A DNA stretch of 32,574 nt from Rickettsiales bacterium (GTDB lineage: Bacteria; Pseudomonadota; Alphaproteobacteria; Rickettsiales; UBA1997): assembly GCA_947487845.1 (NCBI GenBank), contig CANKYC010000003.1, forward strand, positions 1-32,574. The letters run 5' to 3'. Below the pieces are notes generated by a model that saw only the letters and a program-made list of their open reading frames with translations, had not been told where the DNA came from and made no database searches. Shown here one piece after another: positions 1 through 5,532 of this stretch. How positions within the stretch are numbered: the stretch's first letter is position 1; each line of letters begins with the position of its first letter. The position numbers and the translations under genes were made by a program.

Positions 1-74
1 TGAACATCTTTTTTTTCAAGAGAGCTATTTAAGTGGCTTATATTTGGTGATTAACAACGGTTAATGTTGCTGCT

Positions 75-275
75 TTATTTTCTGTCTAATCTTCTTTCGA
101 GCTCTTTCTTCACATTGGCCATATTGTCGCGGATGTGGTCACAAAAAGACACTATGGCATAAAGCTGCTCATCTGAAAAAGTATGAGCATCTCCGGCAAA
201 ATGTCTTAAATCCGTTGCAAACTTTTCCGCCGAAGCTCGTAAAAAGTAGAATTCAATTTTATTTTCAGCCGACAT
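75..275 (-). CDS. Small hypothetical protein (66 aa, MSAENK...), C-terminal coiled-coil-like segment
   Basis: The ORF track starts at 338, but ATG 275 is preceded by a GAGGAG RBS (gaggagttttATG), and the longer version runs through the 302-344 hairpin. No recognisable domain. Confidence 0.55.
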   Translation of the reverse strand: MSAENKIEFYFLRASAEKFATDLRHFAGDAHTFSDEQLYAIVSFCDHIRDNMANVKKELERRLDRK

Positions 276-301
276 AAAACTCCTCAAAAGATTAAAAATA
301 A

Positions 302-344
302 AAAACCGTGTAGAGCCAGTAAATAGAAGGCTTTGCACGGTTTT
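302..344. terminator. 16-bp imperfect stem-loop with T-runs on both strands; probable terminator or leader structure after the RT
   Basis: aaaaccgtgtagagcc (302-317) pairs with ggctttgcacggtttt (329-344), with two G-U pairs on the + strand. Confidence 0.5.
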
Positions 345-383
345 ATTTTACCTTAAAAAAAGCGTCTAGCAAGCTAATTAGTA

Positions 384-1382
384 TTATTTTTTGGGTATTG
401 CGGCAAACTTACCAACCTCTATCTGCCTAGCTTCGCTTAGGTAACTGTTTAATTTAGCAGTTTCTTCTTTGGTCTTATTTTTTTTATTTTTTAAATCATG
501 AATCTTAAGATGGCTTCTATTTCTGAGTTTTAATTCACCTTTGGGGGTTATGACAATTCCGGTTATTTCTTTATTGTCGCTTGGCTGGTAAACTTTGAAT
601 TTCTTTTTGTTGTAGCTTAGCCCATGATTTACGATGATTTTTTTTGCTTCCTCCGCCACTTTTACGGCATTGTCACCTGATATAATAATATCATCTACCC
701 ACAGAGACATTTTGCATCTATAATTACTGGAAATCTCGTCTATCTCATCAAACATTTTTTTATTGGCATAATATGCCATAACCATGCTTACCGGAGAGCC
801 AGTAGGTAAGTGATTTTTAAATGTTAATATTTGTGCAAAAATCTTGGCTACAGGTGTCCGGCATTTTAAATCTTTTTCAAAAAAGTTGAATATTGACTCA
901 AATGTAACTGATGGGAAAAATCCCTTAAGATCAAGCTTAACTGCATACTTATCGCTATTTTCTAAGTGAAATTTTGCGTTATCTAGACAGCTTCTTCCTT
1001 TAGTTCCGGAGAATAAATATTCTTTTGTTTGGATTGATGAGAGCAAAAAAGATAAGCGTTGATGAATTTTATATAACCCTTCTTTTTTATTTCCCTTTGG
1101 AGTTTGGCATAATCTTTCTTTTACTGCGGCGATAGCAAACTTTTTGCCGTTAGGCATCTCTATCTTTTCTCGAATATTTTTATCATTTAGTTCGGCATAA
1201 TCTTTCACTCTTACCAAACGATAATCTTTGACTGCTGATTCTATGAAATTTTTGTCATTGGAGCTGCTGATTTCTTCAAGAGTTGAAACATTCACTCCAA
1301 GTATTTCAGATAACTTCTTTTTGCTCGGAAGCTTGTAAAAGCAGGACTTTTCTAACGGATATTTTTTATTACTTTTTTTCAT
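384..1382 (-). CDS. Retron-type reverse transcriptase (332 aa, standalone)
   Basis: RT motifs KLDLKGFFPSV, LPTGSPVS and WVDD (YxDD equivalent). Retron region X NAxxH (DNAKFH) and region Y VTG-like (EITG). No group II intron maturase or endonuclease domain. Confidence 0.92.
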   Translation of the reverse strand: MKKSNKKYPLEKSCFYKLPSKKKLSEILGVNVSTLEEISSSNDKNFIESAVKDYRLVRVKDYAELNDKNIREKIEMPNGKKFAIAAVKERLCQTPKGNKKEGLYKIHQRLSFLLSSIQTKEYLFSGTKGRSCLDNAKFHLENSDKYAVKLDLKGFFPSVTFESIFNFFEKDLKCRTPVAKIFAQILTFKNHLPTGSPVSMVMAYYANKKMFDEIDEISSNYRCKMSLWVDDIIISGDNAVKVAEEAKKIIVNHGLSYNKKKFKVYQPSDNKEITGIVITPKGELKLRNRSHLKIHDLKNKKNKTKEETAKLNSYLSEARQIEVGKFAAIPKK

Positions 1383-1668
1383 CTTCTTTACAAATCCAAT
1401 CTAGAAAATCGACAGCGGTTTTGGCTAAAAATAATTTAGCTTTTTTTCTTAAGCCTTTTTTATCCTTATATTCTTCTGCAAACAGCATTATAGACGATAG
1501 AGGTATGTCAAAAACATCGGAGTATTTTTGCAAAACTTCAAGAGTTGGGGTTTTGCTATTTGATTCTATTTCTGAAATGTAAGAGCGGGAAATGCCAAGA
1601 TTTTCTGCTAACTCTAGTTGAGTTTGATGATTAAAGATTCTGATGTGTTTTAGTATTGATCCTAGCAA
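1369..1668 (-). CDS. XRE/Cro-C1 helix-turn-helix protein, retron-associated
   Basis: TQLELAENLGISRSYISEIESNSKTPTLEVL is a typical XRE HTH. TTG start preceded by AAGGA. Overlaps the RT start by 14 nt. Confidence 0.88.
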   Translation of the reverse strand: MLGSILKHIRIFNHQTQLELAENLGISRSYISEIESNSKTPTLEVLQKYSDVFDIPLSSIMLFAEEYKDKKGLRKKAKLFLAKTAVDFLDWICKEDEKK

Positions 1669-1707
1669 TGTTGATGTCCTTAAAATTGTAAAAACGGAGT
1701 AGAAGTT

Positions 1708-1827
1708 TTAACTAAAGAAATCGATGACCTTATTAATCGTATCAACTACTGTAAAAACGATTTTTAAAGTAGTTGGGTTTAATAATTTCTTCCTTAGTGG
1801 CTTTTGTTTTTTTCTATTTTTTGACAT
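1708..1827 (-). CDS. Unannotated 39-aa peptide MSKNRKKQKPLRKKLLNPTTLKIVFTVVDTINKVIDFFS; candidate retron small-protein effector
   Basis: Hand-translated from ATG (1827) to TAA (1708); absent from the ORF track. Lies between the structured RNA and the HTH gene in the same orientation. Very basic N-terminus and hydrophobic/amphipathic C-terminus. Confidence 0.7.
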   Translation of the reverse strand: MSKNRKKQKPLRKKLLNPTTLKIVFTVVDTINKVIDFFS

Positions 1828-2140
1828 AATTTTAAAAATAAAATTATGACACAAAGGTGTGTCGCCCCGACTAAACGAAATGAATCAGTCGCCTCAAAAC
1901 CAACGACATTTCCTTTAGTTACTCTCTAGGACGATCAGACGGTAAAAACAAAAGCCGCTTCCACTCCATTTACCCAGATTCACATTACCACTATAATACC
2001 GATAGCGTAACCTAATATAAATTAGATCTGATTTCCTACACATTGTCTTATGCGCAGAAAGGGAGTTAAGATACTTATTCAGCATCTCGTGAGCAAATGA
2101 ATGCTCAAAAAAACATGAGAGTTATCCGCCTTTCACCTTA
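1828..2140 (-). ncRNA. Putative retron ncRNA (msr-msd) or structured leader; boundaries approximate
   Basis: No ORF in the track. Many stems: 2091-2106, 2070-2086, a long stem 1927-1939/2027-2038 enclosing three hairpins, 1868-1891 and 1848-1863. G-U wobbles favour the - strand. Upstream of a retron RT operon. Confidence 0.65.
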
Positions 2141-2144
2141 CACT

Positions 2145-2172
2145 ATTTTCACCACGATAAAATCTTTGTCAA
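2145..2172 (-). promoter_or_regulatory. Putative sigma70 promoter of the retron operon
   Basis: Perfect TTGACA (2172-2167), 16-nt spacer, then a degenerate -10 (GAAAAT). Confidence 0.45.
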
Positions 2173-2331
2173 TAAAAATGTTGCTGTAAGCGAGGCAATT
2201 ATCCCTTGACATCGTGATTTAGTTAAGGAGAATTAGAGCCGTCCTGACCGACAGTTTTTTTAATCTCAAAATCTAAGCACGAATGTCAAAAGATCCAAAA
2301 ATTCCTCCGCCAGTTAAAGATGATTACGATA

Positions 2332-2889
2332 TTAAGAGCCTATAAATATACTCTTCATAAGCATCAAAAAACTGACTAAGAAGGAAACCGAAATAATCGC
2401 CAAAGCGACATTAATAAATAGCCCTTTAGTGGCGTTTATCTCTTTTGCTTTGGCGATTCTTGTTGAATAAGTTTGCAACTGACAACAAATCAAAAAGCGT
2501 AAATCTCCCTTATTATATTTCGCTTTCAGAAGTTCTTCTGGCGATGTTCCAATTGTAGGAAATTTTTCTGTTTTGTAGGTAATCGATAGAATTGCGAGGG
2601 CAAGACAAAAGCCGCTGATTAACACAATTAAAAGCCCCTGATAAGAAGAATCCCCAAATTTTAAAATTCCAAATAAAGCAGTTAAAGAGGCGGCTAAAAA
2701 AGTTCTTACTAAAGCACTTTTATTATCGAGAGAATCATAATTTGCCGACACAATCCGCATCAACTTTTCGCCCTCTTGCAGAATGAAATTTGCCTTATCT
2801 AAATCTATTTTATCCCAATCAATTTCATCAGGATTTGCAAGTATTTGAGGCTGATTTTTTTTAGTAAAAAATTGTTTTAAAATCTTCAT
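2332..2889 (-). CDS. IS passenger: hypothetical membrane protein with about 3 TM helices
   Basis: Three hydrophobic stretches. Starts 5 nt after the transposase stop and lies inside the TIRs. Confidence 0.75.
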   Translation of the reverse strand: MKILKQFFTKKNQPQILANPDEIDWDKIDLDKANFILQEGEKLMRIVSANYDSLDNKSALVRTFLAASLTALFGILKFGDSSYQGLLIVLISGFCLALAILSITYKTEKFPTIGTSPEELLKAKYNKGDLRFLICCQLQTYSTRIAKAKEINATKGLFINVALAIISVSFLVSFLMLMKSIFIGS

Positions 2890-2894
2890 AAATC

Positions 2895-3785
2895 TTACAA
2901 AATTGTTGCTCCAACCAGCTTATCAAAAATAAACTCGTTGTTGCGGTTGTTATATCTAAACGCAAACTCATTCACATAAAGCTGTAAATGTTTCTTGCTC
3001 ACATGATGATAAATCCCATAAACACCACGCTTCAAGGTTGACCAGAAGCCTTCGATTGAATTTGTGTGAGCGTCAGCACCTTTCTTGTATTCACCTTTTG
3101 AGTGATTAACAACTTGGTGCTGAAATTGACTGTAAAGCCAGTAATAAGCCTTGTGTTCATCTGTCATTATTTGGCTGCCTTTCTTCACATTCTCGTGAAT
3201 TTTAGCCATGATCGTATCGCGCTTTGCATCATCAATTACAAAGGCTCTAACCTCCTTATCTCTTTCAAGCATTCCTAAAACAATCATCTTCTCAAAGATG
3301 CCTTTAGCAGCAACTCTTTCACTCATATGTTTGTTTTCTGCTTTGCCGCCCAAGTAGGTTTCGTCAATCTCAATAATTGTATTCATAAAATCATCGTCAT
3401 CATCTTCTTTCTTCTTTTTATTACCCATCGCAAGACGAATCTGGCGAAGCATACGCCAAGCGGTTTTGTAGGTTACTTCAATTTCTCTTTGAAGCTGCAA
3501 CGCACTAATTCCTTTTTTACCATTTAGAAAAAGGTGAATTGCGTAAAACCATTTGCGAAGGTCTGTGCAAGAGTTTTCAAAAATCGTGTCTTTGAAAATT
3601 GAGAAATCTCTATTGCATTCAGCACATCTAAAAAACTTCATCATTTTTTCGTTTGAGTAAGGATAAGTTTTTAAACTTCCGCAGTGGTTGCAGTGAGGCA
3701 TTTCCTTGCTGTATCTAGTTTTAATGTAATAATCTACTATCGCTTGTTCGGTCGGAAATTTTTTCTGAAATCTTAAAAAATTCAT
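2895..3785 (-). CDS. IS1595-family (ISXO2-like) DDE transposase
   Basis: N-terminal zinc ribbon (CNHC...CAEC), HTH (GISALQLQREIEVTYKTAW), catalytic EIDETY, MTDE and HTNSIEGFWS, C-terminal YVNEFAFRYN. Confidence 0.95.
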   Translation of the reverse strand: MNFLRFQKKFPTEQAIVDYYIKTRYSKEMPHCNHCGSLKTYPYSNEKMMKFFRCAECNRDFSIFKDTIFENSCTDLRKWFYAIHLFLNGKKGISALQLQREIEVTYKTAWRMLRQIRLAMGNKKKKEDDDDDFMNTIIEIDETYLGGKAENKHMSERVAAKGIFEKMIVLGMLERDKEVRAFVIDDAKRDTIMAKIHENVKKGSQIMTDEHKAYYWLYSQFQHQVVNHSKGEYKKGADAHTNSIEGFWSTLKRGVYGIYHHVSKKHLQLYVNEFAFRYNNRNNEFIFDKLVGATIL

Positions 3786-3819
3786 AAAATCTTTTTCGTT
3801 TGGTTTAAGAATTGTGATT

Positions 3820-3848
3820 ATTGTAAAAAGATTGTTTCACGATGTCAA
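3820..3848 (-). promoter_or_regulatory. Transposase promoter with its -35 inside the TIR
   Basis: TTGACA-17 nt-TACAAT, 35 nt upstream of the transposase ATG. Confidence 0.7.
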
Positions 3849-4182
3849 GGGATAATTGCCGTAAGCGACATTTAATTTTCTGCAAGATAGCGATAAGTTC
3901 GTAAATGAGACAAAAATTTTGCTCGTAGAAGTGCTTTGATAAGTTTAGGTGAGACATCACAAAGCCAATGTTTTAGAGGCTAAACTATTTGAGAAAGGTT
4001 AAGCATATTCGGAGAAACGGAGAGATAAATACCGAGAAATTGGCGGAAATTCTGAATTGCGGAGAAGAAGCAGTTAAGGCAAATCAAAAAATACAACCCC
4101 CCTTGATCCCGTAAATACAGGGATTGGAGGGGATATAAAAAATTACAAAAACTGAGCGGAGATAGTTTTTGAGCTGTAGTTA

Positions 4183-4274
4183 TGGCGGAGAAAGAGGGAT
4201 TCGAACCCTCGATACAGTTTTACCCGTATACTTTCTTAGCAGGAAAGTGCCTTCAGCCGCTCGGCCATTTCTCC
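4183..4274 (-). tRNA. tRNA-Ser(GCT)
   Basis: GGAGAAATGGCCGAGCGG...CT-GCT-AA anticodon loop, long variable arm, GGTTCGAATCC T-loop, encoded CCA. Confidence 0.96.
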
Positions 4275-4419
4275 GTGTGATAATTATTTAGCTGTGGAAG
4301 TGAACATAAGAGTGAAAAGCATTTCGTCAACTTTTTTTACGAGTCTATCGCAAATCAAAATTTTCTTAAGAACTTTTTGATTTGCGACAGGCTCTTTTAA
4401 GTAATACGCCAATTAATTT

Positions 4420-5532
4420 TTATCTCTCGGCGTTAATCGTAAATGTGATTTCAATCTCGTCTTTCACGCCATTGGCTTTTTTCGGGTCGCGGTCGCCGAC
4501 CAAAAATGTGCTGCGTTTGATTGTGGTTTTGCCAACTGCGCGGGCTTTGGTTTGGCTATATTCTTCTAAAATAAATTCTACCGGAGTGGCGATGGTTTTG
4601 CCTTTTATAGTTAACATACCATCAGCGCGGAAAGTTTTTTGAGCGCTTAAATTTGTGAAGCGACTGGCGGTAAAAGTAGCTTTTGGAAAGGCTTGAACTG
4701 AAAGCCAAGCTGCGTTTTTTATGGCGTCTAAGGCTTCGTTGAAGGAGGTGTCGATTGAGGTTGTGTCAATATCAATCTGGATTTTGCTTTTGGTCAATTG
4801 GTTTTTGTCAAAATTAATTTTGCCGTCAAATTTTCTGAAAGATCCGGTGATGTTGGAATTTTCTTGAATAGCACGAAATTCTAATTTGCTTTTGGAAGGA
4901 ATGATTTTCCATTCATCAACTGTTGCGGCTGCTGTGTCGTCTTTATAAGGCATATTGCTGCCAGCTACGGCGAAAGTTAATTCAGATTCGATGGCGATTT
5001 TAACTTCGTCAGAAACACCCGGTAAGCCAAAATCCATGCCGAATTGCGAACGTTTGATCGTAGTTGTGGCGCTGAATCCCGCGGTTTTTCTCTGGTTGAT
5101 CGGGTTGAGACCAATCTTGTTTACTTTCACGTTTAAAGTCACTGGTTTGGTGGTTCCAAGCAAAGTCAAATTACCTTGAACTTTGGCGCTGGTTTTGCCG
5201 AATGGCGTAACTGATGTGCTTACAAATTTCGCAGTAGGGAATTTTTCGGTATAGAAAAAATCTTTGCTTTTTAAATGTTCATCAAATTTGGAATTTCCGG
5301 TGGAGATGGAATCAGTTTTGATGATGATTTCAACCAAGCTGTTTTGCGGGCTGGCTTCGTCTAAAGTTAAAGTGCCGTCAACATCGGTGAATTTTCCTGA
5401 TGGGCTAGAAAAGCCAAAATGATTGGCCGACCAGTTGATATTGGTGTGATTGGTGTCGAATTTGTAAATTTCAGTGGCGTGGGCGGAAAAAGTGCAGAAA
5501 AAAATAGCAAGAATCGGGAGGAATTTTTTCAT
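4420..5532 (-). CDS. Secreted tandem YceI-domain (polyisoprenoid-binding) protein
   Basis: Signal peptide followed by two YceI-like repeats (DTNHTNINWSANHFGFS...DEHLKSKDFF...FPTAKF and WKIIPSKSKLEF...AFPKATF...LTIKG). Confidence 0.85.
   Translation of the reverse strand: MKKFLPILAIFFCTFSAHATEIYKFDTNHTNINWSANHFGFSSPSGKFTDVDGTLTLDEASPQNSLVEIIIKTDSISTGNSKFDEHLKSKDFFYTEKFPTAKFVSTSVTPFGKTSAKVQGNLTLLGTTKPVTLNVKVNKIGLNPINQRKTAGFSATTTIKRSQFGMDFGLPGVSDEVKIAIESELTFAVAGSNMPYKDDTAAATVDEWKIIPSKSKLEFRAIQENSNITGSFRKFDGKINFDKNQLTKSKIQIDIDTTSIDTSFNEALDAIKNAAWLSVQAFPKATFTASRFTNLSAQKTFRADGMLTIKGKTIATPVEFILEEYSQTKARAVGKTTIKRSTFLVGDRDPKKANGVKDEIEITFTINAER

Follow-up and report, generated by a model that had tools for sequence, protein, structure and literature searches.

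A Type VI retron of an uncultured Rickettsiales bacterium with a hairpin over the start codon of its presumed toxin gene

Genes of the retron and their surroundings

The DNA analysed here is a stretch of 32,574 nucleotides from a Rickettsiales bacterium (assembly GCA_947487845.1, contig CANKYC010000003.1), referred to as the window throughout; the source genome amounts to 1.05 Mb and is 57% complete. Close to the beginning of the window, three genes follow each other on the minus strand in the order SP-HTH-RT (SP 1827-1708, HTH_VI 1668-1369, RT_VI 1382-384):

384..1382, minus strand: reverse transcriptase (RT) gene, 332 aa, xVDD active site; PADLOC RT_VI, Pfam RVT_1
1369..1668, minus strand: HTH_VI gene, 99 aa, TTG start with AAGGA before it; PADLOC HTH_VI (2e-33), Pfam HTH_3 (1.5e-13)
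1708..1827, minus strand: SP gene, the presumed toxin, 39 aa, with a basic N-terminus and a hydrophobic C-terminal helix

By its sequence the locus is assigned to the Type VI retrons, an anti-phage system. Specifically, the RT matches the RT_VI model of PADLOC at 8.5e-70 (233 bits, model positions 2-274 of 279), with RT_III-A as the runner-up at 3e-32, and its catalytic aspartates are intact (WVDD, D230 and D231 being invariant among 21 aligned RTs). The gene upstream of it, which encodes an HTH protein of the Cro/C1 type, overlaps the RT gene by 14 nt. The SP has no match in Pfam or PADLOC, and relatives of the window SP were found only among the locus's own kin and none beyond; like the aligned SPs of 15 other loci, it has a basic stretch ahead of a hydrophobic helix. 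Its toxicity is presumed by analogy with the SPs of Retron-Vpa2 and Retron-Sen3, to which we return below. At E values up to 1, a scan of window positions 1-5000 against Rfam returned a tRNA-Ser alone above the gathering score.

The RT family is sporadic in its distribution: among 400 genomes sampled from the order, 9 have a match to the RT_VI model at E <= 1e-30, and the window's own RT is matched at E <= 1e-30 in 4 of 126 genomes of the family. The usable relatives, ranked by RT identity, are L003/L016 (99%), L019 (96%), L017 (78%), L018 (56%) and L020/L021 (45%), and a further 11 RT relatives known as proteins (P0002-P0012) have identities of 74-84%. A scan of viral contigs for relatives gave nothing above 36% identity, and then over short segments only. 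The loci of L020 (961-2017) and L021 (428-1496) encode Type VI RTs (RT_VI 2.9e-71 and 2.7e-74, respectively) in which the SP gene overlaps the RT gene and no HTH gene stands between the two; downstream in L020 there is an XRE gene (123 aa) in convergent orientation that matches HTH_VI weakly (6.8e-10). In L017 the SP gene (2259-2351, minus strand) has an extra T at about codon 27, which leaves 31 residues and loses the C-terminal helix, and this frameshift may mean either that the toxin gene is decaying or that the assembly is in error.

The neighbourhood of the genes deserves a separate remark. The retron cassette (250-2193) is 99.3% identical in L003/L016, a genome placed in another genus of the same family, and the RT of the same-genus relative L017 is only 78% identical. 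The flank with tRNA-Ser(GCU) (4183-4274) has 90.6% identity with L003/L016 and the other flank is unrelated, which suggests that the cassette moves as a unit beside tRNA-Ser, or that bins have been mixed. An IS1595-family element occupies window positions 2194-3860, 14 nt upstream of the -35 box of the RNA described in the next section. It has perfect 24-nt terminal inverted repeats and an 8-bp flanking duplication (2186-2193, 3861-3868), carries genes for a 296-aa transposase (3785-2895) and for a 185-aa membrane-like passenger ORF (2889-2332), and its site is empty in L019 and in L003/L016.

The hybrid RNA and the start of the SP gene

The SP frame is part of a longer structured RNA of about 420-470 nt, the hybrid RNA (hyRNA), in which the following elements are distinguished, given here in the direction of transcription:

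2145..2172, minus strand: predicted sigma-70-type promoter of the hybrid RNA (TTGACA, 16 nt, GAAAAT)
1699..2130, minus strand: hyRNA; extent from RNA-library contigs, strand deduced from promoter and ORF
1975..2128, minus strand: arm 1, msr-msd-like, with five short hairpins; closed by 2128-2112 with 1986-1975
1958..1971, minus strand: internal 'splint', able to pair with the 3' end (1705-1692) and, alternatively or alongside, with the 5' end (2122-2115)
1944..1956, minus strand: 5' arm of H13, a 13-bp helix in which L017 has one compensatory change (C:G to U:A)
1862..1934, minus strand: SL-I, first stem-loop of arm 2, 73 nt, carrying the second copy of AUUCAUUU (1885-1878)
1848..1863, minus strand: hairpin hp1, 6 bp, GACACA (1863-1858), loop CCUU, UGUGUC (1853-1848)
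1825..1848, minus strand: hairpin hp2, 10 bp, CAUAAUUUUA (1848-1839), loop UUUU, UAAAAUUAUG (1834-1825)
1799..1811, minus strand: 3' arm of H13, corresponding to SP codons 6-10
1692..1705, minus strand: 3' inverted-repeat arm, just past the SP stop codon and with a U run after it; pairs with 1971-1958

The promoter-like site lies about 300 nt upstream of the SP AUG; it is a consensus match only, at 10 of 12 positions, and 25 of its 28 positions are kept in L017.

The extent of the RNA comes from four metatranscriptome runs (X1-X4) belonging to four different studies and labelled freshwater, lake water or marine. Each run yielded one contig that matches the window unbroken at 99% identity or more, namely 1699-2113 (X1), 1701-2130 (X2), 1701-2121 (X3) and 1736-2121 (X4). 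Because these single contigs (records of 420-442 nt) bridge arm 1, hp1 and hp2, and the SP ORF in all four runs, the non-coding arm, both hairpins and the SP frame stand on one assembled RNA-library molecule. The contigs give neither the strand, the level nor the exact ends of the hyRNA, and the coincidence of their 3' ends at 1699-1701 in three of the four runs is a weak hint only. Two contigs have loose ends at 2121, which we take to be sequencing adapter. Over the HTH and RT genes (493-1698), the four runs provided only a 27-nt piece of a chimeric record, an absence of cover that is no sign of low expression. The possibility that hp1 and a U run form an intrinsic terminator was also considered and rejected, because the contigs of all four runs read through hp1, which is therefore not an efficient terminator.

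The 681-nt region folds with a z-score of -6.78 (none of 20 shuffles was as good), and a three-arm fold is obtained with the predicted ends and with the observed RNA ends alike. Arm 2, which is closed by H13 (1956-1944 with 1811-1799), contains the 73-nt stem-loop 1934-1862 plus hp2, and arm 3 is the remaining SP frame (1798-1711). In the predicted full-length fold every stem base of hp2 has a pairing probability of at least 0.96 and the AUG one of at least 0.97, and the AUG is likewise paired in L017. The smaller hairpin, hp1, competes with the closing helix of SL-I (1934-1928 with 1868-1862); it is missing from the minimum-energy fold of the window and present in that of L017.

Several repeated motifs were seen along the hyRNA. 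The 8-nt direct repeat AUUCAUUU occurs at 2102-2095, in a hairpin loop, and at 1885-1878, in arm 2, and is kept at 7 of 8 positions in L017; by our own estimate (about 0.5 expected) such a repeat is at roughly chance level in A/U-rich RNA. Three copies of GUUUUUAC are present, at 1949-1942 (the 3' end of the 5' arm of H13), at 1758-1751 (within the SP frame) and at 1695-1688 (in the 3' tail), and a 10-nt repeat, CGUUUUUACA, includes the latter two. In more distant Type VI loci, AAUUC(C)GG is found in the loop before the SD, with a second upstream copy in L030, L004, L026 and L025 that is near (about -112) only in L026 and L025. Long pairing between arm-1 cDNA and arm 2 was dropped as a candidate, since the complementarity of the two is equalled or bettered by shuffles (-37.2 vs -42.5 ± 5.0). 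As for the RNA ends, contig ends at 2121 and about 1700 would set the 5' and the 3' end adjacent on one internal segment, 1969-1958 having both the RNA 5' end and the 3' tail as partners, either alternative or adjacent.

The start codon of the SP gene (AUG, 1827-1825) lies within the 3' arm of hp2, and C1848 is common to hp1 and hp2. A preliminary description of this DNA, made from the sequence alone, had reported a perfect 10-bp hairpin with the AUG in its 3' arm and with one base shared with an upstream hairpin, and this is exact when the minus strand is read. Its further remark, that no Shine-Dalgarno (SD) sequence is exposed, agrees with the absence of GGAG, GAGG and AGGA from the 20 nt before the SP AUG. 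Indeed, an SP start without an SD is normal for this genome: the other gene starts in the window (n = 23) have A/U-rich leaders and, when read by eye, an SD-like motif (AGGA, GGAG or GAGG) within the 20 nt upstream was found at one of the 23, that of the retron HTH gene, with AAGGA. An upstream TTG at 1854 was tried as an SP start and rejected, because the one-U insertion in the hp2 loop of L019 and L017 would change its frame.

At 37 C the RNA energies are -6.1 kcal/mol for hp2, -5.6 for hp1 and -11.6 for the two together; hp2 reaches -10.6 kcal/mol at 15 C and -5.5 kcal/mol when folded as DNA. Perfect hairpins of at least 10 bp with loops of 3-8 nt are found at four distinct places in the window, giving 5 counts vs 0.99 ± 1.14 in 100 dinucleotide shuffles, and the 76-nt local fold has a z-score of -1.85 (equally good folds in 9 of 200 shuffles). 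As a bare palindrome hp2 is thus only weakly above chance, and the 1.05-Mb, 57%-complete genome contains its exact sequence a single time.

Conservation and possible roles of the start region

The window and L017 are identical at 338 of 460 positions (73%) over the whole hyRNA, and these are unevenly spread. Arm 1 is the most variable part (61% identity); SL-I keeps 5 of 23 positions in its distal part and 26 of 29 on its 3' side; hp1 keeps 14 of 16 and has 5 bp in L017. The best-conserved stretch is hp2 together with SP codons 2-5, with 24 of 25 and 13 of 13 positions identical, respectively, and the block 1848-1812 as a whole keeps 37 of 38. Conservation of the hairpin, the lack of which the preliminary description had listed among the results that would count against its reading, was found: the hp2 arms are unchanged in L019 and in L017, the relative with a 78% identical RT, and the sole change in both is an extra loop U.

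Evidence from paired changes is more selective. In a three-sequence alignment counted on the window's fold, compensatory changes affect 6 of 155 pairs; shuffles give 1.9 ± 1.2, with a count this high in 1 of 500, and slid controls give 0-1. Within arm 1 they concern two pairs of hairpin 2107-2090 and one pair of hairpin 2060-2033, and one of the six sits in H13, where compensatory change inside the coding region suggests selection on pairing of the start region. The hairpin hp2 receives no support from covariation, because 14 of the 15 pairs of its helix never vary among the three sequences; such invariance says nothing on pairing, neither for nor against. Comparable arrangements occur in more distant relatives. 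In L020 and L021, SP positions +19..+29 pair with an upstream segment in an 11-bp helix, in which the two loci differ by a C:G to U:A change, and a 5-bp tetraloop hairpin adjoins an A/U hairpin that has the AUG in its 3' arm, in a sequence unlike that of the window. In L018 there are also two adjoining hairpins, the second of which covers GAGG and leaves the AUG free. Among the Type VI loci compared, the buried element follows the host, being the SD in GC-rich hosts and the AUG in AT-rich lineages.

The cost of opening the start region depends on how much of the RNA is included. Positions -18..+12 of the window take 6.9 kcal/mol to open; shuffles take 8.4 ± 2.9, with 99 of 150 reaching the window's value, and in the window, L017, L018, L020 and L021 alike this segment is no harder to open than in shuffles (z -0.5 to -1.1). 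Given 100 nt of flanking context at either end, the SP start requires 7.35 kcal/mol vs 5.7 ± 2.6 for the 23 other window genes, which makes it fourth of 24, and over four context sizes the figure is 7.4-8.1 kcal/mol. By itself, hp2 is energetically ordinary, and weak at 37 C. When the segment is extended to -18..+30, so that H13 is included, the cost becomes 16.8 kcal/mol in the window vs 11.0 ± 3.0 (5 of 80 shuffles as high) and 18.9 in L017 vs 8.5 ± 2.7 (0 of 80); in L018, L020 and L021 it is not above that of shuffles. According to these models, closure of the start would exceed chance when H13 joins hp2, borderline in the window and clearly in L017. Over 17 Type VI loci, opening the SP start averages 14.6 kcal/mol vs 8.0 for HTH starts, and the SP cost is the higher one in 14 of the 15 loci that have both genes, many of these loci being kin. 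Occlusion in this RNA may plausibly rely, in energetic terms, on hp2 and H13 together and probably on bound proteins.

A mechanism of this kind has been described for Retron-Vpa2, a Type VI retron of Vibrio parahaemolyticus with a hyRNA of about 470 nt (Zhang et al. 2025, bioRxiv 10.1101/2025.10.22.683967). According to that preprint, its SP's RBS and start codon lie in stem-loops of the second arm of the hyRNA and translation of the SP is repressed; a phage trigger makes msDNA accumulate, which is needed for SP translation and sufficient in trans; a conserved direct repeat of 7 nt, with one copy in an msd loop and one in a loop of the riboregulator, is proposed as the contact; and RT, HTH and hyRNA co-purify. 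For the present locus we see a roughly even chance that hp1 and hp2 likewise belong to the second arm in a Type VI hyRNA and, together with H13, repress the SP, with RT-DNA as the agent that would derepress it. In this proposal, one transcript of about 420-470 nt would begin some 300 nt upstream of the SP gene and carry in turn the msr-msd-like arm, the SP start region and the rest of the SP frame, its 3' end folding back onto an internal segment. In a genome that rarely uses an SD, hp2 would hide the AUG itself and H13 would in addition pair SP codons 6-10 with an upstream segment, so that the two would keep the ribosome off the toxin message at rest. After phage infection, by analogy with Vpa2, the RT would copy arm 1, the resulting DNA would remodel arm 2 and the SP would be translated, and the HTH protein would restrain the RT, the SP or both. 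The retron type, the fold, the unbroken RNA contigs and the conservation are results of the present analysis; repression, derepression by RT-DNA and toxicity of the SP are inferred.

Because the locus is a Type VI retron with a layout of the Vpa2 type, and because hp2 and H13 are predicted to close the start together, the idea of occlusion is plausible, and it is already in print. The preliminary description had proposed that RNA structure occludes translation and that reverse transcription relieves it; the Vpa2 mechanism and the same RNA layout at this locus speak for that proposal; taken alone, hp2 is energetically ordinary.

A different division of labour is unlikely but has an appreciable chance, namely that the SP is always translated and that the HTH protein neutralises it post-translationally, the hairpins being a scaffold or a setting of the basal level and no switch. 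Such is the case in Retron-Sen3, a Type VI retron of the cl2075 lineage from Salmonella enterica (Garcia-Rodriguez et al. 2026, bioRxiv 10.64898/2026.04.27.721009): ssDNA and SP are constitutive, tagged SP is seen without phage, and the HTH protein acts as a post-translational antitoxin that neutralises the SP without RT or ncRNA and whose loss is lethal, even though the SP RBS lies in a stem. The ordinary energetics of hp2 alone would fit this, and the predicted HTH-SP fold of the present locus gives it weak support, with a score of 0.44 vs 0.01 for the best of three controls. Of 157 solved complexes 116 reached the mark applied to such folds, as did 2 of 215 mismatched pairs; at a score of 0.60 or under, however, only 18 of the 157 reached it, along with both of the passing mismatches. 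The runs, for which we used our own alignments, share at least 86% of contacts, with a partner pLDDT of at least 61. However, Sen3 belongs to an SP lineage known from Beta- and Gammaproteobacteria (10.64898/2026.04.27.721009), whereas the window SP has no relatives found outside its own kin, and the strong conservation of hp2 with codons 2-5, along with the compensatory change of H13 in the coding region, suggests that pairing of the start region has been selected. Given the HTH-SP fold and the Sen3 data, post-translational control may operate alone or beside RNA-level control, and the two can coexist. For the same reasons, the preliminary description went too far in offering RNA occlusion in place of the protein sequestration seen in many retrons, since the Sen3 HTH does neutralise a constitutive SP. 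It is improbable that the hp2 block of the RNA serves above all to bind protein, with RT or HTH docking there and burial of the AUG as a side effect. The co-purification of RT, HTH and hyRNA in Vpa2 is in line with docking, and the block 1848-1812 is kept in sequence beyond pairing (37 of 38 in L017), which is more than a plain stem needs; yet its equivalents in L018, L020 and L021 are unrelated in sequence, and the recognition helix of the HTH protein is near-invariant nonetheless (residues S27, S29, Y30, E33 and E35 are invariant or nearly so among 15 Type VI HTH proteins).

The constancy of that helix also bears on a caveat of the preliminary description, that the palindrome could be a DNA operator for the XRE-type HTH protein. 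A perfect 24-bp palindrome near an HTH gene, with a DNA hairpin of -5.5 kcal/mol, would suit an operator, but the minus strand has its only good promoter match (2172-2145) some 300 nt upstream of this palindrome, a scan of minus-strand positions 1900-1820 found no promoter-like site, and the palindrome is present once in the genome, with no second copy at the promoter. Moreover, its sequence is wholly different between lineages that have the recognition helix unchanged, and in L020 and L021 the hairpin module is present even though SP and RT are not separated by an HTH gene, an argument made soft by the convergent XRE gene of L020 with its weak HTH_VI match. The published roles of the HTH family are repression of reverse transcription in an RNA-protein complex and neutralisation of the SP (10.1101/2025.10.22.683967, 10.64898/2026.04.27.721009), and the available portions of these two Type VI preprints contain no report of DNA binding by it. 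An operator is thus very hard to credit. It is likewise quite improbable that hp2 is an A/U palindrome that arose by chance and does nothing in itself. At this composition roughly one perfect 10-bp hairpin would be expected in every 32 kb, the z-score of the local fold is only -1.85 and the stem is without covariation, and these figures leave room for chance; against it, the palindrome falls exactly on the toxin start codon in a system known for such stems, hp2 is the most conserved part of the hyRNA, and positional equivalents exist in L018, L020 and L021.

Within the preferred reading, repression of the SP start by hp2 and H13, a more specific version can be formulated, to which we give a small chance only. 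In hosts that seldom use an SD, the switch may have been rebuilt in such a way that a weak, temperature-sensitive A/U hairpin hides the AUG while a long-range helix clamps codons 6-10, and that processed ends of the hyRNA (2121 and about 1700) compete for the 12-14-nt splint 1969-1958, which would couple reverse transcription of arm 1 to the opening of the toxin start in cis.

Comparison with known systems

Type I toxin-antitoxin systems offer a familiar parallel: their mRNAs for small hydrophobic toxins keep the translation start buried in structure until they are remodelled, and are opened or closed by antisense RNA or by 3' processing. The opener proposed for the present locus differs from these in being reverse-transcribed DNA.

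Among retrons, Sen3 shares with the window the gene order SP-HTH-RT, an SP frame inside a conserved structured RNA (with the SP RBS in a stem in Sen3) and a long-range inverted repeat whose 3' arm lies past the SP stop codon. It differs in its control, which is post-translational by the HTH protein with a constitutive SP.

The likeness to Vpa2 extends to (i) the gene order SP-HTH-RT, (ii) a three-arm RNA with the start signals of the SP in two stem-loops of the second arm, (iii) a 3' end that folds back on an inverted repeat and (iv) an SP with a basic N-terminus and a hydrophobic C-terminal helix. Unlike Vpa2, the window has no SD and holds the AUG itself in a stem, and it has an extra 13-bp helix over SP codons 6-10; its hairpin is made of A/U pairs and is weak at 37 C, its RT has VDD in place of the YADD of Vpa2, and its loop repeat is 8 nt long, of another sequence and not clearly above chance. 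In addition, msDNA, trigger and toxicity have been shown for Vpa2, whereas the locus in the window is known from sequence and RNA contigs.

The start-codon hairpin is therefore one more case of a design already known, since control of the toxin at the level of RNA was described in 2025, and not a new design. Since the 2025 preprint established the mechanism for Type VI retrons, the interpretation offered in the preliminary description is sound in kind, and not new. What the locus adds, a modest gain, is a case from a bacterium that is uncultured, AT-rich and small in genome and makes little use of SD sequences, where it is the start codon itself that is buried; a helix that clamps codons and shows compensatory changes within the coding region; and contigs from RNA libraries of natural waters in which the toxin gene and the non-coding arm are joined without a break. 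Set beside Vpa2 and Sen3, it could help to tell which features of hyRNAs are general, and whether control of the Vpa2 or of the Sen3 kind is the commoner one.
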